Virus record (IMG/VR): IMGVR_UViG_3300027793_000064 | From: an uncultured virus (IMG/VR IMGVR_UViG_3300027793_000064) | Taxonomy: Duplodnaviria; Heunggongvirae; Uroviricota; Caudoviricetes | Length of the DNA stretch: 64,000 nt | Strand: one strand, 5' to 3' | Part shown: in pieces, positions 40,910 through 63,362 of the stretch | How positions within the stretch are numbered: position 1 is the first letter of the stretch | Layout of the letters: every line of letters starts with the position of its first letter | The notes under the pieces: model-generated | Databases searched by the model: none | The model's input: the letters and a program-made list of their open reading frames with translations, nothing else | What the model was told of the DNA's origin: nothing | Program-made: the position numbers and the translations under genes

Positions 40910-41599
40910 TTAGAGGCCGAACTTCTCGCGGCAGATAGGACCGATTCCTAGGCGAATCGACTCTTTGTTTGTCAGTTCCTTGCCGCAGCAGCTGCAGCTA
41001 CCAGTCTCACGCCCATAGCGAACTGCGGCGCTGAGAGGATCAGCGGCTGCTGCGATTAGAGTCTCTTTAACGCTATCCGGAATCCGCGAATCCAGACGGT
41101 TAGGTGTAATCTTGCCGAGATATTTCGGCTGCAGACCATAATCTCCCTCTACCTTTTCAGTGGAGGAAAGAACCCAAATAGCGTCGCCTGTTTTGTTTAG
41201 TTTCAGGATTGCGTCACTGAAACGCATTGTGAGTCTCTTCGCACCTTTAGCGCGTGCAGCCATGAAAGGCTCAAATAGGCCGGAGAATTGCGGCTCCTCG
41301 CTATCATCCTGCTGCTGCGATTCCTGCTGCAGGAGATCAGTGGCAAGCTTGTGAGCCCAAGCTAGCTGGCGCTCTGACAGGCCACGATCGTGAGACTGCT
41401 GCCACAGCGACCGCGCAAACGATCCCTGGCAGTACTGCAGGAGATCCTGCGCGGCATCATCGCTCAGGCGGCTGCTAAAGGTCAGCAGCTCACCGCGAGC
41501 GGTCACAGCCATCTCCTGCGGATCGCGCAGGGAAGCGTGCGCAGCGGCGCGAGCGATGGCAGCGGCGCGATCGGTGGCGGTGGCGGAGAGGGTAGGCAT
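40910..41599 (-). CDS. DUF6011-like zinc-ribbon protein
   Basis: C-terminal YGRETGSCSCCGKELTNKESIRLGIGPIC; start set at MPTLS, downstream of a TACACT -10 box. Confidence 0.75.
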   Translation of the reverse strand: MPTLSATATDRAAAIARAAAHASLRDPQEMAVTARGELLTFSSRLSDDAAQDLLQYCQGSFARSLWQQSHDRGLSERQLAWAHKLATDLLQQESQQQDDSEEPQFSGLFEPFMAARAKGAKRLTMRFSDAILKLNKTGDAIWVLSSTEKVEGDYGLQPKYLGKITPNRLDSRIPDSVKETLIAAAADPLSAAVRYGRETGSCSCCGKELTNKESIRLGIGPICREKFGL

Positions 41600-41696
41600 G
41601 GCCGGATTGCGTTGGCTCCTAAAGTGTAGGCGATGGCCAGCCGCACCGCGAGCCAGCGGCGGCATCCTGTTACATTCATTCACAAATATATTTCAT

Positions 41697-41743
41697 GGCA
41701 GGGTAAGCGTGGCTCACTTATCGTCACTGGGCTTCGGACCCTC
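41697..41743 (-). ncRNA. 47-nt structured repeat, copy 1 (inverted); putative sRNA core
   Basis: Minus strand GAGGGTCCGAAGCCCAGTGACGATAAGTGAGCCACGCTTACCCTGCC; -10-like TAGGAT at 41758-41763. Confidence 0.6.
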
Positions 41744-41809
41744 TGCCGGTTTCACCAATCCTACCATGCCAAGGGCGGCAGCTGTGGCCGCCCTGACATA
41801 AAACTTTAA

Positions 41810-41971
41810 CTATTCTTTCTCTGCGAATGTTTCGATCTTAGGGTCATAATATCCCAGAGAATCGTAGAAGTCGATCATGTTTTTAGCCTCTGCAATTGTG
41901 GCAAAATCTTGATGCTTTCTCTCGCCATTGTAGCGAGGGTAAGGTGCAAGAAAGGAGATGCGGATTGTCAT
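41810..41971 (-). CDS. Small hypothetical protein
   Basis: Read by hand: MTIRISFLAPYPRYNGERKHQDFATIAEAKNMIDFYDSLGYYDPKIETFAEKE. Confidence 0.65.
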   Translation of the reverse strand: MTIRISFLAPYPRYNGERKHQDFATIAEAKNMIDFYDSLGYYDPKIETFAEKE

Positions 41972-43322: not shown

Positions 43323-43505
43323 GGGGCTTCTCCGGTTGACTCTGTAATTGTAGCAGCTTGCTGGGGCTTCTAGAGGCTTCTGGCGAGGTTTTGATCCGGT
43401 CCTGGGATTGGCACAAGATCTTGAGAGAATACGAAAAAACGAAAAAAGATCCAGGAAATTATAAAAAATTCCTGGATCTTATGGGAGCCTGTGATACTGT
43501 GAAAC

Positions 43506-43628
43506 CTAGTCTTTATCCTCCTCGATGATAATAATCTCCTTGTCTTCGTTGATGTATTCGGTCCTGATAATGTTGGGTGCGATCTGTACCTGACCGATAA
43601 TGTAGGCAGCAGCGAGTAGTTCAATCAT
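43506..43628 (-). CDS. Small hypothetical protein
   Basis: Read by hand: MIELLAAAYIIGQVQIAPNIIRTEYINEDKEIIIIEEDKD; ATGA overlap with the upstream ORF. Confidence 0.6.
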   Translation of the reverse strand: MIELLAAAYIIGQVQIAPNIIRTEYINEDKEIIIIEEDKD

Positions 43629-43762
43629 CGGAGAATCCTGTGGCGAACATCAACGAACTGTTGTACTTCATGAGACTTGAAATACCAAATGTGTCCATTG
43701 GTATCTTGAAATGCCCAGAGCAATTCTTTAGTCTCAATGTCATAAGTTTGCATAATTTCCAT
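43625..43762 (-). CDS. Small hypothetical protein
   Basis: 3' part of track ORF 43625..43855, read from MEIMQTYD. Confidence 0.5.
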   Translation of the reverse strand: MEIMQTYDIETKELLWAFQDTNGHIWYFKSHEVQQFVDVRHRILR

Positions 43763-43808: not shown

Positions 43809-43937
43809 TCAGCATCGTTCGGTAACTTGACAAGTGAGATCTGCAACCTTAGCATCTAAGGTTTTGGCTGCCTTGAAAGATGCAACCAGTGTGTTGCTGA
43901 AGGTAACAGCAACCAGTGCAAAGATAAAGATCTTCAT
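43809..43937 (-). CDS. Small membrane/secreted peptide
   Basis: Read by hand: MKIFIFALVAVTFSNTLVASFKAAKTLDAKVADLTCQVTERC; TGATG overlap with the upstream gene. Confidence 0.55.
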   Translation of the reverse strand: MKIFIFALVAVTFSNTLVASFKAAKTLDAKVADLTCQVTERC

Positions 43938-44419
43938 CAGAACAGACCTTCAGCAACAAGACGATCATAAAGAACAGCAGCCAATGCACCACAATGGGAG
44001 CAAGCCTTTGCGTATTTGATCTCAGATTTGAGACTGTATTGTTGGGGAGTATTATGATGCTTGCTGTAGATGAATTTGTAACGATGAACAGCAGAAACAA
44101 GCTTAAGCAGTTGGCGCTTGTCGAGATCTTCTCCAGCCATCTTATAGATGGGGATGAAGAATCGGTAGTCTTTAATTAAATTGCAGCGATTCAGACGATC
44201 GACAATAGCCTTGGCACCAGCACCACCGAAGTAGGGAGTCAGCTCCACCATCAGGAAAGCCGAGAACGGTGCCAGAGCAGCCTTGCCGGTAGTGCTAGGC
44301 TGTACGGTCACAGATGCAGTCTGAAGCTGCTGCAGAGCTTCCTGTAGAGTGCTGAGGCTATCTGCCATCGTGGCCAGCTGGCTGGTGATGGACTGAAGCT
44401 CGGTCTGGAAAGGTTGCAT
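43937..44419 (-). CDS. Coiled-coil plus CxxC protein (paralogue of 56988..57569)
   Basis: LNRC..I.D and KYAKACSHCG motifs shared with the 57-kb ORF. Confidence 0.8.
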   Translation of the reverse strand: MQPFQTELQSITSQLATMADSLSTLQEALQQLQTASVTVQPSTTGKAALAPFSAFLMVELTPYFGGAGAKAIVDRLNRCNLIKDYRFFIPIYKMAGEDLDKRQLLKLVSAVHRYKFIYSKHHNTPQQYSLKSEIKYAKACSHCGALAAVLYDRLVAEGLF

Positions 44420-45558: not shown

Positions 45559-45699
45559 GGGGTGGAATCCCTTTCGACTCCCATAGTCTCTCATGCCTTA
45601 TGGGGAAGATCAAGTGGGTCTTGTGCCAGAAAATAAGTGGCACACTCCACCCCCATGAGGCGGTAGTGGATGCAGTAGACTATGGGAACAAGAGAAGAG

Positions 45700-48144: not shown

Positions 48145-48348
48145 ATAAAATAATCGCCTCATAAGAATCTGATATATTTGATATTCTTATGAGCTAGTGT
48201 GATTCTCATAAGTATCTGATATATTTGAATGTTTTATGGATGGGGGTGGGGGCGATGAGTATTTGTGATATTTGTGATTCTTATGGGTCGGTGTGGGTCT
48301 TATGAGTCTTATGGGGGGTGTACCAGAAAAAAATCTGGTCGCGCCCCT

Positions 48349-49699: not shown

Positions 49700-51172
49700 T
49701 TAATCGTTGACCGATACCATCGTAAGATGGTTCATTGCACGAGTGACCTGAACATACAATAGATTATTTTCTTGTTCAAGTTCCCATTCTTTTCTTGCCC
49801 ACTTAGATGGAGAATACTTATCCATTCCCAGTGCAAATACTCTGGGGAACTCACGACCTTTTGATTTGTGAATAGTGGAAAGAACAAGAATTTGTTTATT
49901 CTCTGTATCATCAAAGATTTCTTTGATTTTATTTGTCAGAGTAGTGATGGTATCAGTTGGTCTACACTGATCAACAAAAACGAAAAGAGTTTCAACCTGA
50001 TCCTCAATTACCTGACACAATGCCTCATTGCCTTTCTCCTTATTCTTTTTGATCTCATCTTCTTTATAACCTTCTAACTTTGAAATAAGATCAGAAACAT
50101 TCTTACTCTTCCATTTCGTTGCAAGTTTAATGAGTCCTTCACCAATTTTTCTTCCTTCGATCTTACAAGGGATTTTCTTGCGAATCAGATCATAAGCAAC
50201 TTCAACTAATGGTTTCGTATTTCTACAAATGATGGCATCATTCTGTGTTACAAGATTTGGAAGTTCTTTGATAGTACATGCATCGACAATTCCTTCTGGT
50301 GAATTTTCATGAGATTGAATATGTGACACATAATTCTGTGCAACTTTGACTACATTTTTGGGACAACGAAATGTCACGGAAAGTGGCATTTCTTTTGCAT
50401 TAAATTCTTCTTTGATCAGACCCAGTGCATTATAATCTGCACCAGTGAAACCATAGATTGCCTGATGATTATCACCAACCGCAACGAGTTGTCCATTTGT
50501 TTTGAGCATCATTTTCACAAGTTGACGCCTTGTGGCATTGGTGTCTTGTGCCTCATCAAGAAAGATATGATCATATTGCCAGAGCTTCAGTCCACAATGA
50601 ATAGGAAGATAGATCATATCAGAAAAATCAACCACATTCTTAATCTTATTCGATTCATTTAACAAATACTGAGAAGCCTCAACTGCATTCTCATCAGAAA
50701 CATCTTTGGGTAAAATATCCCACAGATTATAATGATCGAACATATCAATCCAATGATTATACTCATCATCTACTACTGCTCCGATACCAACTTCTTTTGC
50801 CATTGCAACAGAACTGATCACGAACTGCCTGAGATGTGCAGACTTTCCATTGAAATGATCATCCGCAATTGTCCTTAGTTTGTTTCCATCAACTTTCACA
50901 TTAGAAAATGCTCTCCTTACGGCACCAAAACCAAAGGAATGGACAGTTCCGACATTTACATCTTTTTTAATCTTACTCTTTTGGATTTTAACTTCAATCT
51001 CCTTTGCAATTGCCTTATTGAATGCACAAAATGCAACAGAACCTTTTGTTGCAGAAAGCATTTCAATCAGTGTACTGGTCTTTCCTGCACCAGCAACAGC
51101 AGAAAGAATGATCGAATGATTGCTGTTTTTGACTGCATTGATAGCAGCAGCTTGTTGTGATGAGAGTTTCAT
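49700..51172 (-). CDS. UvrD/Rep-like SF1 helicase
   Basis: AVAGAGKT, FLDEAQD, VGDNHQAIYGF, TFRCP, STIHKSKGREF and YVQVTRA motifs. Confidence 0.93.
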   Translation of the reverse strand: MKLSSQQAAAINAVKNSNHSIILSAVAGAGKTSTLIEMLSATKGSVAFCAFNKAIAKEIEVKIQKSKIKKDVNVGTVHSFGFGAVRRAFSNVKVDGNKLRTIADDHFNGKSAHLRQFVISSVAMAKEVGIGAVVDDEYNHWIDMFDHYNLWDILPKDVSDENAVEASQYLLNESNKIKNVVDFSDMIYLPIHCGLKLWQYDHIFLDEAQDTNATRRQLVKMMLKTNGQLVAVGDNHQAIYGFTGADYNALGLIKEEFNAKEMPLSVTFRCPKNVVKVAQNYVSHIQSHENSPEGIVDACTIKELPNLVTQNDAIICRNTKPLVEVAYDLIRKKIPCKIEGRKIGEGLIKLATKWKSKNVSDLISKLEGYKEDEIKKNKEKGNEALCQVIEDQVETLFVFVDQCRPTDTITTLTNKIKEIFDDTENKQILVLSTIHKSKGREFPRVFALGMDKYSPSKWARKEWELEQENNLLYVQVTRAMNHLTMVSVND

Positions 51173-51308
51173 AGGGGTTTCCCTGAACTGAGATTATTGT
51201 AGCTCATACTATGAGGTGATGGAGATGGTCAGTGGACAATGCTGGGACTGTCCATCAGTCTCCCCAGTATTCATACATAAAACCCTGTGGCGTGGAATAC
51301 AGATGTTC

Positions 51309-52055
51309 CTACTTTCTGCCCGATCTCCAACCTTCGCCTGGACATTCTATAGAACGAGTGGTATTTCCGCAACCATCATTCCACCATTTCATACTACTCA
51401 TTAGTCTTTCAATTTCTTGGCCACGACCAAGAACCCAACCTTCACCTGGGCACTCTACAGAAAGAATGCAATTTCCACATCCATCATTCCAAAATTTTTT
51501 CCCATAATTATGATTATCTTCTCCCACATATTTACCTTTTTTTAGTTCGCTCAACATTCTCTTAGTTTCTTCAGAATGTTTTTTGCCTTTTCTTTTTTTA
51601 CTCCAATTTTGTTTAGTTTCTTCAGAATGTTTTTTGCCGTAGAAAGGATTATTTTTGCCACTCAAAATTTCACTTCGTTTCCCTCTGGTTTCATCTGAAA
51701 ATGATTTACCATACCTATGATTGTTTTCTCCTTTCATTGCTTCACTTCTTTCTCTTTTCCATTCTTCACTTCTTATAAGACCAGAAAACCCTTCACCTCC
51801 ATTAGTCCTATTCCTTAATATCCCAGTTCCCAAATCTTTTCTGCCAAAGACCGCAATCATATATTCCTCGTGCTTAAATGCGTCTTCTTCCAGGAGATTT
51901 TGTTTGAGAAATATTATTCTGGATTTGTCTTTTGGGAGTTGTATTTCATTTTTGCGTTTATAATATGCTCTATTTCCTTCTCCTTTTCCAATGTAATAAG
52001 GACTTCCATCTTCACGCAAATATGCGTAAGTATAAAACCTTTTTGGGTCTTTCAT
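51309..52055 (-). CDS. Free-standing GIY-YIG homing endonuclease with NUMOD3-like repeats
   Basis: FYTYAYLREDGSPYYIGKG, GILRN.TNGGEG, KKHSEETK repeats and duplicated WNDG...ECPGEGW..GR. Confidence 0.88.
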   Translation of the reverse strand: MKDPKRFYTYAYLREDGSPYYIGKGEGNRAYYKRKNEIQLPKDKSRIIFLKQNLLEEDAFKHEEYMIAVFGRKDLGTGILRNRTNGGEGFSGLIRSEEWKRERSEAMKGENNHRYGKSFSDETRGKRSEILSGKNNPFYGKKHSEETKQNWSKKRKGKKHSEETKRMLSELKKGKYVGEDNHNYGKKFWNDGCGNCILSVECPGEGWVLGRGQEIERLMSSMKWWNDGCGNTTRSIECPGEGWRSGRK

Positions 52056-52097
52056 GCTGCTCTTAAGTTGGGTGCATTATTATTTATAAAAATTCAC

Positions 52098-52163
52098 AAT
52101 AGAAAAGGTGCCCCAAAGAGCACCTAATCTATTGCCTGCGAAGATTGCACCCAACTCAGGCAG
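52098..52163 (-). ncRNA. Putative small structured antisense RNA upstream of the endonuclease
   Basis: Late promoter at 52167-52173, stem TGCCTG/CAGGCA, terminator AGGTGC/GCACCT-TTTT; loop complementary to the endonuclease 5' UTR. Confidence 0.55.
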
Positions 52164-52169
52164 TTTTAT

Positions 52170-52610
52170 TTATTGAATCTTCGTATAGACAAATTCCTGA
52201 TCATTAGTGCTCCAATGAATTTCCTTGATTGTTGGACAGTTCCTTATGATATAATTGTAACAAATTACACAAGGTCTGCTTTCTCGTAATTCTTTCCCAC
52301 CATGACCGCCAATTCTACAGATCACGATCTTATGTCCAGGTTTCCTTGCCTTCAAAAGACAATTTATTTCACAATGAAGATATTGCTTCTGCATAAGACT
52401 AGGTTCGTTATACTTATTCGCTGCCATAACAGCAGCATAAAACTGTTGAGTATGCGTGATCACATAAGAATTAACTCCAGTTGCAATCACACGATTCCTC
52501 TTATCAAGTAAAATAGCTCCCATTTTCTTGGGAGCATCAGATGCCAGAGCAACGGCAATTGCCTGTTGTAAGATGTGTTTTTTCAGTGGCGATCGAGTTG
52601 GCATTGTCAA
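52170..52610 (-). CDS. Cytidine/dCMP deaminase-family protein
   Basis: HCE and SRPCVIC zinc motifs. Confidence 0.85.
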   Translation of the reverse strand: MTMPTRSPLKKHILQQAIAVALASDAPKKMGAILLDKRNRVIATGVNSYVITHTQQFYAAVMAANKYNEPSLMQKQYLHCEINCLLKARKPGHKIVICRIGGHGGKELRESRPCVICYNYIIRNCPTIKEIHWSTNDQEFVYTKIQ

Positions 52611-52927
52611 ACTTTAAGTTGATAAAAATCATCCCATTCACGATCTGTCCATGCGATCATGTCATCTGTACATTGTTGTACATCACCAGAGAATGCAATC
52701 CACATTTCTTCATCATCACCAAAATCTTTCATTACTTCATCGGTTTCCATTTGCTCTAGCAATTCATCATACTGAGTAAGATCATCATCATTGTAGGCAC
52801 TTTGAATTTCTTTGAACTTATCCTTTGAAATTACAATTTCACTATAAACAATTTGCCTACGAACTAGAGTGACATTATCACTATCTGAGTCCTCCATTAG
52901 ATTTGCAATTTGACTTAGAGTTTTCAT
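52607..52927 (-). CDS. Acidic hypothetical protein
   Basis: ORF track trimmed to MKTLSQ. Confidence 0.65.
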   Translation of the reverse strand: MKTLSQIANLMEDSDSDNVTLVRRQIVYSEIVISKDKFKEIQSAYNDDDLTQYDELLEQMETDEVMKDFGDDEEMWIAFSGDVQQCTDDMIAWTDREWDDFYQLKV

Positions 52928-52928
52928 T

Positions 52929-53153
52929 TCAATAAACTCCAAATAATTCATCTTTAACCCATTCCTCGGCATAAGATCGTCCCTTTACAATCAAATACGA
53001 AATACCCATAAAGGCAATATATGCACACATGCAAGTAATATATGCAGCACCAAATAGGACTGCAACCAACATGAAAGGAATTGCAAATAGATTCTTTAGT
53101 ATGACATACCATGGCAACAGATTGTTGGACCAGTTCCGGTTGATTTTTTTCAT
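52929..53153 (-). CDS. Small membrane protein
   Basis: Long hydrophobic stretch. Confidence 0.65.
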   Translation of the reverse strand: MKKINRNWSNNLLPWYVILKNLFAIPFMLVAVLFGAAYITCMCAYIAFMGISYLIVKGRSYAEEWVKDELFGVY

Positions 53154-53180
53154 TGTGTTTATAGTATTAGTATTACTTAA

Positions 53181-53480
53181 TCAACGACGAATGAGAAGAT
53201 AACGATTACCGATCTTTTCTTGTGCTCGGCCAGTACGAATACCACGCTCATGCAAAAGTTTAATTTCGGCCTTTAGGGCAGGATCGGTCACAGAGACGGT
53301 TCTACGGCCATTGCAGACGGTCACAGAGCCTTCTGGGACGCTGATCTTGGTCTTTTCGGCAGCATCCATGATACTCATCAGTTCCTGCTCGGCAGCAACA
53401 AGCTCTGCAAGAATGGAATCACGCTGCTTTTTGATTGCAGCGATCTTCAGAATTGCAACGGAAATGTTGGTGGTGTTCAT
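53181..53480 (-). CDS. Hypothetical coiled-coil protein
   Basis: ORF track; TAGACT plus palindrome promoter upstream. Confidence 0.7.
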   Translation of the reverse strand: MNTTNISVAILKIAAIKKQRDSILAELVAAEQELMSIMDAAEKTKISVPEGSVTVCNGRRTVSVTDPALKAEIKLLHERGIRTGRAQEKIGNRYLLIRR

Positions 53481-53549
53481 GGTGTTGTTTGAACTGAGAT
53501 CAGTCTAGTGGATGGTGCTGGTTCTGATGGCTGGGCTTGTGCCGGTTGT

Positions 53550-62407: not shown

Positions 62408-62887
62408 GGTAATTCAGCGAGAGTAATCATCAAAATCTACAGATTGTTCTTCCTCTTCATCTCGAAGTTGCTCAGCAAAGACACTGAGCAACTCATCTTC
62501 TTTGTCTGCGGCAAAATCTACTAGATCTGCAATGAAACTCTGTGGCATGATGGAAACTCCTTTGAACAGTCCTATGGTAGCAACTGAATGTACTGTTGTG
62601 AGTGTCAATGGACGGATTTTAAACCGTCCACTGGCAAAAAAACTTTACATTTCAAGTGCTTCCTGTCTTGTCGAATATGGCCCAAAGGTATCGTATGATC
62701 CATCATTGTACTCTAGATCTACATAAAAGCCAACTTCATCATGAAAGTCCGAAACATCATTCTTTGAGATAAAATAGATCCTTTTTTCGGTAATCTGTAC
62801 TTGACTCTGTGGATTTGCTAGTGAAATCATGGTACGAAAGCTCCGTTGTGCTATTTAGTGGTTTTTTGTTTAAAAATCGGTTAAAAG

Positions 62888-63034
62888 TCAGCAAACGACA
62901 ATTTTAACATCAGTCGCTCCTTGTTTTAATACATGCTCCTCCCACATGCTCGCATCTTCTACCTTAAAAAATGTTGCTTGTTGTTGGGAATACCCTTTTT
63001 TCTTGGGTTGTTGGTAGGTCACTGTAAACCTCAT
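62888..63034 (-). CDS. Small hypothetical protein
   Basis: Read by hand: MRFTVTYQQPKKKGYSQQQATFFKVEDASMWEEHV... Confidence 0.6.
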   Translation of the reverse strand: MRFTVTYQQPKKKGYSQQQATFFKVEDASMWEEHVLKQGATDVKIVVC

Positions 63035-63213
63035 TTGTCGGACTCCTTTAAAAGACGAAGATGTTTGAAATTGTCACAATGAATCACAATGCAGACATCT
63101 CTGTTTCTTTCTTTAAATTGACTGATACAGAGTGTTGCATACTGCTCATCAACAAATCGAATGGTGCCGATGTGATCTTTGTAGATGACTTCGAGACCAA
63201 CTGTGGGAATCAT
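63031..63213 (-). CDS. Small SH3-like hypothetical protein
   Basis: ORF track; ATGA overlaps with neighbours. Confidence 0.65.
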   Translation of the reverse strand: MIPTVGLEVIYKDHIGTIRFVDEQYATLCISQFKERNRDVCIVIHCDNFKHLRLLKESDK

Positions 63214-63362
63214 AGATTTTCTTGATGTTCTTTCATTTTTTCAATCAAATCCTGCATTTTTTCGGCAGCAACATTCTCATATCCAAAATCAAATTGAATG
63301 TCATCTAGAATTACCTCAAGATCGTTGATCAGATCGAAAATAAATTGTTCTTGGTCGCTCAT
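63210..63362 (-). CDS. Small acidic protein
   Basis: Read by hand: MSDQEQFIFDLINDLEVILDDIQFDFGYE... Confidence 0.55.
   Translation of the reverse strand: MSDQEQFIFDLINDLEVILDDIQFDFGYENVAAEKMQDLIEKMKEHQENL

Follow-up and report, generated by a model that had tools for sequence, protein, structure and literature searches.

In the 64,000-nt stretch of an uncultured member of the Caudoviricetes (IMG/VR record IMGVR_UViG_3300027793_000064; the whole stretch is called the window below), a free-standing homing endonuclease gene is preceded on the minus strand by a 119-nt control region (52056-52174). This region is probably one copy of a portable 5′ control cassette of free-standing homing endonuclease genes, which acts as a translational lock of the type found at I-TevI of T4 and mobE of Aeh1. 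The cassette consists, in this order, of a first promoter box (P1), a hairpin carrying an anti-leader sequence, a terminator-like hairpin, a perfect second promoter box (P2) and the leader of the endonuclease mRNA, and the same order was found 5′ of homing endonuclease genes at more than 200 viral-contig loci. Both helices of the region covary at the RNA level, and the module travels with the nuclease gene. The hosts of the cassette are T4-like cyanophages, mostly from fresh water.

A first-pass annotation had interpreted the region as a separately promoted, pseudoknot-capable RNA antisense to the endonuclease leader. The covariation, the conserved P1 box, the terminator and the co-travel of the cassette strengthened this interpretation, while its pseudoknot and its option of a nuclease-specific guide had to be given up. 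A separately promoted RNA of ~64 nt is plausible, because the P1 box lies at a fixed spacing, the terminator-like hairpin carries a T run, and the unit is absent where the endonuclease is absent.

Anatomy and folding of the control region

All elements listed in the annotation were located on the minus strand, where the region is organized as follows.

52167..52174, minus strand: P1, late-promoter-like box AATAAATA, read from the sequence; it overlaps the TAA stop codon (52172-52170) of a deaminase-like open reading frame (ORF).
52146..52163, minus strand: 5′ arm of the long-range helix, CUGCCUGAGUUGGGUGCA, in the minimum free energy (MFE) and centroid folds of the 141-nt read-through RNA.
52134..52161, minus strand: hairpin 1, stem GCCUG (52161-52157) / CAGGC (52138-52134), in the MFE fold of the predicted P1 RNA.
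52146-52156, minus strand: anti-leader AGUUGGGUGCA in the loop of hairpin 1, from the sequence and the MFE fold.
52098..52161, minus strand: hypothetical P1-to-terminator RNA of ~64 nt, with its start predicted from the T4 box rule and its end from the U tract.
52098..52133, minus strand: terminator-like hairpin including the AAUAGA/UCUAUU flanking extension and the U-rich tail, from a consensus scan and stem covariation.
52106-52125, minus strand: core of the terminator-like hairpin, AGGUGCUC-UUUG-GGGCACCU, then UUUUCUAUU; 8 pairs, 5 of them G-C, and a loop of 4 in the consensus scan.
52081..52088, minus strand: P2, perfect late promoter TATAAATA, read from the sequence, 26 nt 5′ of the ATG.
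52066-52076, minus strand: leader segment UGCACCCAACU, the exact complement of the loop 11-mer; the ATG is at 52055.
52056..52076, minus strand: endonuclease mRNA leader and 3′ arm of the long-range helix, including the AAGAG Shine-Dalgarno-like stretch; predicted +1 at G 52075.

The complementarity between the loop 11-mer and the leader was exact, as annotated, and a repeat search extended it to 16 nt at 88%. By itself, an inverted repeat of 11 nt proves little, because such repeats are not rare in the window: 13 exact inverted repeats of at least 11 nt with loops of 3-100 nt were counted, compared with a mean of 3.38 (standard deviation (sd) 1.67, maximum 8) in 40 first-order Markov simulations. 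Several of the others cluster in the gene-poor part at 43-48 kb (43446-43658, 43892-43958, 45579-45687 and 48158-48193).

The 141-nt read-through RNA was predicted to fold at -50 kcal/mol, compared with -27.7 ± 3.6 kcal/mol for shuffled sequences (z -6.1; 0 of 200 shuffles as low). A bulged helix of 18-20 bp in this fold pairs CUGCCUGAGUUGGGUGCA with UGCACCCAACUUAAGAGCAG and encloses the terminator hairpin and P2. The mean unpaired probability of positions -14 to +3 was 0.79 in the P2 transcript versus 0.42 in the read-through transcript. Hairpin 1 and the long-range helix are alternative pairings, because the 5′ arm of the helix (52146-52163) overlaps the 5′ arm and the loop of hairpin 1. The read-through RNA reached -61.0 kcal/mol versus -45.3 kcal/mol for the state in which hairpin 1 is kept and the leader is free, the latter value being composed of -30.7 kcal/mol for hairpin 1 with the terminator and -14.6 kcal/mol for the P2 mRNA fold. 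The predicted 64-nt P1 RNA formed two hairpins (-30.2 kcal/mol), and its cofolding in trans with the P2 mRNA gained -14.0 kcal/mol (ΔΔG) after the opening of hairpin 1. Pairing in cis and pairing in trans both appear energetically feasible in these models.

Recurrence and covariation of the module

The distribution of the module was investigated by three pattern scans of viral contigs, the results of which overlap in part. A twin-box pattern matched at least 122 loci, with match lengths clustered at 79-98 nt; a pattern of terminator tail plus P2 matched at least 123 loci; and a pattern for one family of hairpin 1 matched 58 loci. Furthermore, 15 homologous endonuclease starts were inspected in viral contigs, the cultured phage S-SRM01, phage B3 and the window. 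The same module was present at nine of them (the window, L001, L002:2224, L003, L005, L011, L012, L013 and L027), and two others (L002:3502 and L017) had a variant with the anti-leader in the loop of a large terminator hairpin. The arm sequences differed between the loci of these endonuclease homologs yet stayed complementary. In the variant design (L002:3369-3510 and L017:1365-1506), the anti-leader pairs with the 12 nt directly 5′ of the ATG. Two compensatory changes distinguish the copies, one of which has ATTAAATA as its upstream box and the other TGTAAATA.

Loop-leader covariation in homologs, the check that the annotation had proposed for itself, was clearly positive. The main count used 105 modules, non-redundant on their arm sequences and aligned without gaps on the leader TGC, after removal of L093 (a repeat artefact) and L005:4366 (atypical). 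On average, 11.28 of 12 positions were paired, compared with 7.71 (sd 0.15, maximum 8.15) in 500 permutations of the partners. Positions 4-10 were paired in 94-100% of these modules, with four to seven pair types each. Wobbles with G in the anti-leader and U in the leader were common and the reverse was rare; this strand asymmetry indicates that the pairing takes place in the sense-strand RNA and is not a DNA palindrome. The edge of the helix was sharp, pairing dropping from 99% at the T that precedes the predicted P2 +1 to 18% at the adjacent upstream base.

In an equal-length alignment of 30 rows, both partners changed in 9 of the 12 pairs of the long-range helix and in 8 of the 12 terminator pairs. 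The cells of this alignment were paired at 88.9% versus 73.2% after shuffling, and its covariation score was 0.480 versus 0.196 in the shuffled set (0 of 500 reached the observed value), with at most 0.155 for slid partners. Among the matches listed for the twin-box pattern, 95 unique modules, including ~7 false positives that were left in, showed a median duplex energy of -23.0 kcal/mol for cognate anti-leader and leader, compared with -11.5 kcal/mol for 1,125 non-cognate pairs. These modules contained 57 distinct leader 12-mers, so diverse is the pairing core within an otherwise conserved scaffold. The segment from P1 to P2 was predicted to form two hairpins in 86 of these 95 modules. The anti-leader core lay within the first hairpin in all 105 modules of the main count, and 6-8 of its 10 nt were unpaired in 92 of them. 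Among 66 modules chosen without regard to the T run, 63 had a run of at least three T after the GC stem and 44 a run of at least four. Taken together, the comparative data argue strongly, and in our view decisively, for an RNA element.

The H-type pseudoknot suggested in the annotation did not share this conservation. Its two halves, AAUCU (52146-52142) and AGAUU (52130-52126), are present in the window, but across the 105 modules the longest contiguous pairing between loop and spacer averaged 3.10, compared with 2.98 with a shuffled spacer, and the pseudoknot was rejected.

The genes found behind the module are varied. They include several GIY-YIG families (with Pfam matches for L038, L043 and L075), an endonuclease VII-like gene (L037) and HNH genes, of which L144 was recognized weakly by Pfam and L058, L050 and others by motif only. 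NUMOD3-only fragments (L060) and N-termini with no Pfam match (L044, L051, L061 and L086) also occurred. A full-length TnpB of 398 aa (L338:629-1822, in G002, a 243-kb cyanophage genome), with HTH_OrfB_IS605, OrfB_IS605 and Cas12f1-like TNB domains, is preceded by the same cassette of P1, anti-leader, terminator, P2 and leader (module at L076:400-514). The anti-leader word of the window itself was found again in L043, L064, L082, L096, L101, L140 and L149. Because the same anti-leader word precedes different nuclease families, the module is a shuffled regulatory cassette and not the partner of one enzyme. The guide or cofactor RNA that the annotation had offered as a less likely option is thus unlikely, at least as a nuclease-specific one, since the same module with the same word stands 5′ of unrelated families.

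Among cultured phages, a blastn search with a typical module found S-SRM01 only (two records of one phage); the cassettes of S-SRM01 are located at ~51.3 kb and ~62.4 kb of its record. No match at the gathering score was obtained in Rfam, where three sub-threshold matches were at chance level. The module was duplicated in tandem in L062. L135 and L132 contained runs of promoter-like units, TATAAATA plus a few bases in four to five repeats, with no hairpins.

Promoter boxes, cassette boundary and host genes

The heptamer ATAAATA is depleted in the window, with 15 copies versus 33 expected, and 12 of them lie on the coding (minus) strand. Ten of these 12 minus-strand NATAAATA boxes are located 18-38 nt 5′ of an ORF start, including those of portal, sheath and baseplate genes; the remaining two are P1 and a copy 171 nt from the next start. 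The positions of ATAAATA provide a clean late-promoter map for the structural genes of the window. For cyanomyoviruses, NATAAATA has been reported as the late-promoter motif (PMC2984593), and the form of P1, AATAAATA, is the commonest among the minus-strand boxes (7 of 12). The T4 late box is reported to span -13 to -6 (PMC1524935); on this rule, the predicted start of P1 transcripts is at the foot of hairpin 1 (G 52161) and that of P2 transcripts at G 52075, the second paired base of the leader. No sigma-70-like site was found by a consensus scan of the minus strand at 50500-53500.

Conservation of P1 was assessed in two sets of modules picked without reference to P1. Among the matches listed for the pattern of terminator tail plus P2, 88 unique modules had NATAAATA in 50 cases, NCTAAATA in 37 and neither in one, with the P1 box 63-74 nt 5′ of P2. 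In the 38 unique modules of the hairpin-1 family, the corresponding numbers were 24, 13 and one. The P1 position thus held N[A/C]TAAATA in 87 of 88 modules of the first set and in 37 of 38 of the second. The hexamer itself, TAAATA, and the spacing that separates it from the foot of the hairpin are near-invariant over many insertion contexts, with -13 free and -12 either A or C. Position -12 takes these two states only, in ratios of 50/37 in the first set (among the matches listed) and 24/13 in the second; both ratios refer to modules in L157-L337. In one of the insertion contexts, A or C at this position goes together with GAA or GAC as the last codon of the upstream gene. P2 was TATAAATA in 38 of 38 modules chosen on hairpin 1 only. 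NCTAAATA matches the late-promoter consensus reported for Aeh1, CTAAATA (PMC1524935). In the window, CTAAATA occurs 9 times versus 17 expected, with at most two of six minus-strand copies near ORF starts; it does not behave like a promoter there by position, which neither supports nor excludes activity. Judged from these patterns, P1 looks functional but weaker or more variable than P2.

The boundary of the cassette was examined at the junction of gp3-like and uvsY-like genes in L003 and not at the junction of the window itself, because the helicase relatives L009 and B3 have other upstream genes. In L003, the module and an endonuclease gene sit between the gp3-like and uvsY-like genes. In the endonuclease-free relatives L033 (gp3-like 84% identical), L031 and L034, the stop codon of the first gene and the ATG of the second share bases, and in endonuclease-free B3 (L032) a short spacer separates the two flanking genes. 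Neither P1 nor any other part of the module was found in these four relatives (L031, L032, L033 and L034), and the divergence of L003 from the endonuclease-free alleles starts within the first bases of the P1 box. P1 thus travels with the cassette. In both the window and L003, the upstream gene terminates at the TAA contained in P1.

The window derives from a T4-like myovirus; its G+C content is 35.5%, and almost all of its genes lie on the minus strand. PHROG matches identified T4-like genes for the portal, tail tube, sheath, large and small terminase and baseplate wedge. Among named phages, the freshwater Synechococcus phages S-SRM01 and B3/B23 (Kyanoviridae) are its closest relatives. On the minus strand, the gene order is dCMP-deaminase-like gene, 119-nt control region, endonuclease gene and UvrD-like helicase gene.

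52170..52610, minus strand: upstream host gene, dCMP/cytidine-deaminase-like, outside the cassette; Pfam PF00383 (E 3e-6) and PHROG dCMP deaminase.
51309..52055, minus strand: free-standing homing endonuclease gene, 248 aa, with a Seg-like GIY-YIG N-terminus and three NUMOD3 motifs.
49700..51172, minus strand: downstream host gene, UvrD-like helicase, given as context; Pfam UvrD-helicase (E 8e-27).

The annotated homing endonuclease was borne out by the three NUMOD3 motifs (Pfam E 7e-21), by matches to PHROG homing-endonuclease families and by tblastn matches to annotated Seg-like GIY-YIG endonucleases, while the Pfam GIY-YIG model gave no match at E ≤0.01. Homologous endonuclease genes in public records, L011 (S-SRM01 62515-63273) and B3 41545-41913, are labelled 'translation initiation factor 2', apparently in error. 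L003 also carries a second, unrelated GIY-YIG-like ORF (980-1465), flanked by the major capsid gene on one side and by a small ORF (1422-1856) on the other; several endonuclease genes are thus grouped around the late structural genes.

Proposed mechanism, alternatives and related systems

From this arrangement we infer promoter activity at the boxes, termination, translational repression and a possible action in trans. RNAs starting 5′ of P2, that is read-through from the deaminase-like gene and P1 transcripts, would carry the anti-leader, and most of them would stop at the terminator-like hairpin. In those that read through, the anti-leader would fold onto the leader as the bulged helix of 18-20 bp, burying the Shine-Dalgarno-like stretch and leaving the ORF untranslated. 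RNAs started at P2 alone would lack the anti-leader and keep the initiation region open. The nuclease would be made late and at a low dose, because only P2 RNAs have an open initiation region. Three features of such a lock were found, by prediction: a homing endonuclease downstream, a helix over the initiation region on upstream-started RNAs, and a late promoter between the arms. In addition, the foot of the anti-leader hairpin would be the starting point of transcripts from the upstream late box, and between the arms lies a predicted terminator; together, P1 and the terminator would yield a two-hairpin RNA of ~64 nt that shows the anti-leader in its loop and could pair in trans with P2 mRNAs. 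The terminator of this candidate RNA is recognized by consensus only, and the same pairing serves the established cis mechanism on any read-through transcript.

Several results weigh against the lock as drawn here. A purely cis-acting lock leaves the retention of P1 at fixed spacing unexplained (87 of 88 modules, among the matches listed, and 37 of 38). Hairpin 1 competes with the long-range helix, and a switch between the two is an assumption. Four of the 15 homologous endonuclease starts (L004, L016, L018 and L019) had no module at all. RNAalifold predicted 0 pairs on a MAFFT alignment of 106 sequences, because, in our attribution, indels put the arms out of register. Finally, RNA contigs from two freshwater metatranscriptomes matched the window at 49700-50060, 51278-51711 and 52577-52931 and none covered 52056-52174; contigs cannot show transcript ends and are neutral on a small RNA. 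The contigs at 51278-51711 are at least 99% alike to the window over the 3′ half of the endonuclease ORF, and DNA carry-over is possible.

How P1 is explained separates the two closest alternatives. A lock working in cis only, to which we would give slightly less than an even chance, is the design established experimentally in T4 and Aeh1 (PMC2988022). P1 might then supply endonuclease-silent late transcripts for the downstream host gene, which the terminator of the cassette would otherwise cut off from upstream transcription, but P2 could already feed that gene. Alternatively, the AU-rich box might be an RNase E-type site, such as that reported in the Aeh1 mobE RNA (PMC2988022), a stop codon or cassette junction, or a means of promoter interference with P2. 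The TAA of P1 is indeed the stop of the upstream gene in the window and in L003, and the A/C dimorphism tracks a GAA or GAC last codon in one insertion context; however, a stop codon or a junction is insufficient for a TAAATA and a hairpin-foot spacing that are near-invariant over many contexts. The other alternative makes a trans-acting small RNA (sRNA) the main function, an idea that we hold tentatively and with some doubt. The ~64-nt RNA would be abundant, its loop would kiss the 5′ end of the P2 mRNA, and pairing would spread over the Shine-Dalgarno-like stretch, capping late nuclease synthesis in the manner of a type I antitoxin or a plasmid copy-control RNA. This would account for P1 being kept at fixed spacing in 87 of 88 (among the matches listed) and 37 of 38 modules, for its absence along with the rest of the module from the four endonuclease-free alleles, and for its form in the window, AATAAATA, being the commonest of the phage's late boxes, with the NCTAAATA variant matching the Aeh1 late consensus (PMC1524935). 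It is also consistent with the T run behind the GC stem (63 of 66 modules), the loop display of the anti-leader core in all 105 predicted P1 RNAs, the cofolding gain of -14.0 kcal/mol after hairpin 1 opening, a helix whose start coincides exactly with the 5′ end predicted for the P2 mRNA, and the diverse pairing core (57 leader 12-mers, among the matches listed) in a conserved scaffold. Nevertheless, all these features except P1 are equally expected of a cis lock, and the sharp helix edge may also reflect promoter constraint on the adjacent bases. P1 is less constrained than P2 (first base free and second A or C, versus TATAAATA in 38 of 38), CTAAATA is not promoter-like in the window (9 versus 17 expected; at most two of six near starts), and no discrete RNA was seen among the contigs, which miss the module. 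Moreover, an RNA of the same promoter class and timing as its target would need tuned amounts for any nuclease to be expressed. We regard it likewise as possible but doubtful that, in addition to the cis lock, the P1-to-terminator RNA targets the 5′ end of the late endonuclease mRNA in trans.

An element acting as DNA is very unlikely. Candidates would be a cruciform, a recombination site used in movement of the cassette, or a palindrome to which the nuclease or another protein binds. I-TevI does bind an operator overlapping its own late promoter and represses it (PMC2988022), and P1 and P2 with their shared downstream bases form direct repeats that could recombine. However, G·T combinations, which are mismatches in DNA and pairs in the sense RNA, are frequent and strand-asymmetric, and the arms change freely while remaining complementary (57 leader 12-mers, among the matches listed). 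Because identical arm words accompany unrelated nuclease families, the arms are not a nuclease-specific operator. A chance inverted repeat beside an ordinary terminator and promoter might be suspected in a window with 13 exact inverted repeats of at least 11 nt versus ~3.4 expected, but it was refuted by the comparative data, the same architecture with compensatory changes occurring at more than 200 loci, and retains practically no probability.

The translational lock has well-studied precedents. For I-TevI, I-TevII, I-TevIII and segB of T4 and mobE of Aeh1, it has been reported that the upstream RNA buries the initiation region and that a late promoter between the arms gives a translatable RNA (PMC2988022, PMC3014915). 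The cassette resembles these in holding the endonuclease initiation region in a helix on upstream transcripts and in having TATAAATA between the arms. It differs in that its arms lie ~70 nt apart and enclose a terminator-like hairpin, its 5′ arm has a conserved hairpin of its own with a second late box just upstream, and it is shuffled as a whole unit among unrelated nuclease families. In the 5′ untranslated regions of 15 of 16 metagenomic free-standing endonucleases, Dassa et al. 2009 (PMC2677866) described hairpins that enclose TATAAATA and carry two motifs complementary to each other, and read them as mobE-like translational control. These 'fractured gene' hairpins are probably the same module or a sister module. 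In contrast to the present description, the portions of that text available to us do not mention an upstream second promoter, an inter-arm terminator, a discrete RNA or large-scale covariation, and P1 may be drawn uncommented in the figures. Beyond that text, our analysis adds the second promoter box at the foot of the 5′ arm, the inter-arm terminator, the separate anti-leader hairpin, the scale of the covariation, and the sharing of the module by unrelated nucleases and TnpB. The P1 box, the terminator and the anti-leader hairpin are what a discrete antisense RNA needs, whereas a purely cis-acting lock does not need P1.

Other RNA and promoter elements of phages share single traits with the cassette. 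CfrI, an antisense RNA of ~225 nt in cyanophage S-PM2, overlaps a homing endonuclease gene and psbA (PMC2984593). It is likewise a cyanophage RNA complementary to, and co-expressed with, an endonuclease mRNA, but CfrI comes from the opposite strand across the gene, whereas the element described here lies upstream on the same strand and pairs with ~20 nt of leader. The PeSL cassettes of T4-type phages (Arbiol et al. 2010; Comeau et al. 2014, PMC4122927) are mobile promoter-stem-loop motifs, similar in being short composites that are repeated in a genome and tied to modular gene shuffling. PeSLs are described as carrying early promoters, with no leader-complementary arm, whereas both boxes here are of the late type. 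A term search of the accessible text of PMC4122927 found none of 'late promoter', 'cyanophage' and 'antisense'. With late-type boxes and no sigma-70-like site on the minus strand at 50500-53500, the module was not assigned to the PeSLs. A free RNA would resemble those of type I toxin-antitoxin and plasmid copy-control systems, in which a loop-displayed antisense RNA with a terminator hairpin pairs with the initiation region of the mRNA of a potentially harmful protein. An action in trans has been demonstrated for those RNAs, which are usually transcribed from the opposite strand or from a separate promoter class, whereas for the cassette it is hypothetical. Our literature search found no paper on twin-promoter or trans-sRNA control of phage homing endonucleases, and a 2010 review, in the part consulted, stated that no trans-acting small RNA had been functionally characterized in T4 (PMC3014915).

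To spread, a homing endonuclease must be expressed sufficiently, yet at a level that spares its carrier genome. In T4-like cyanophages, the control of these enzymes is itself a mobile and interchangeable part, common to unrelated nucleases including TnpB. The many natural variants provide a ready covariation record of an RNA-RNA interaction and a set of different pairing sequences on one scaffold. Since S-SRM01 is a cultured phage carrying the module, the small-RNA idea is directly testable. If a working small RNA is released, it would represent a regulator class not described for T4-like phages: orthogonal sRNA-mRNA pairs, with one pairing 'address' per cassette, that travel with selfish nuclease genes and would constitute the first functional class of trans-acting sRNA in these phages.

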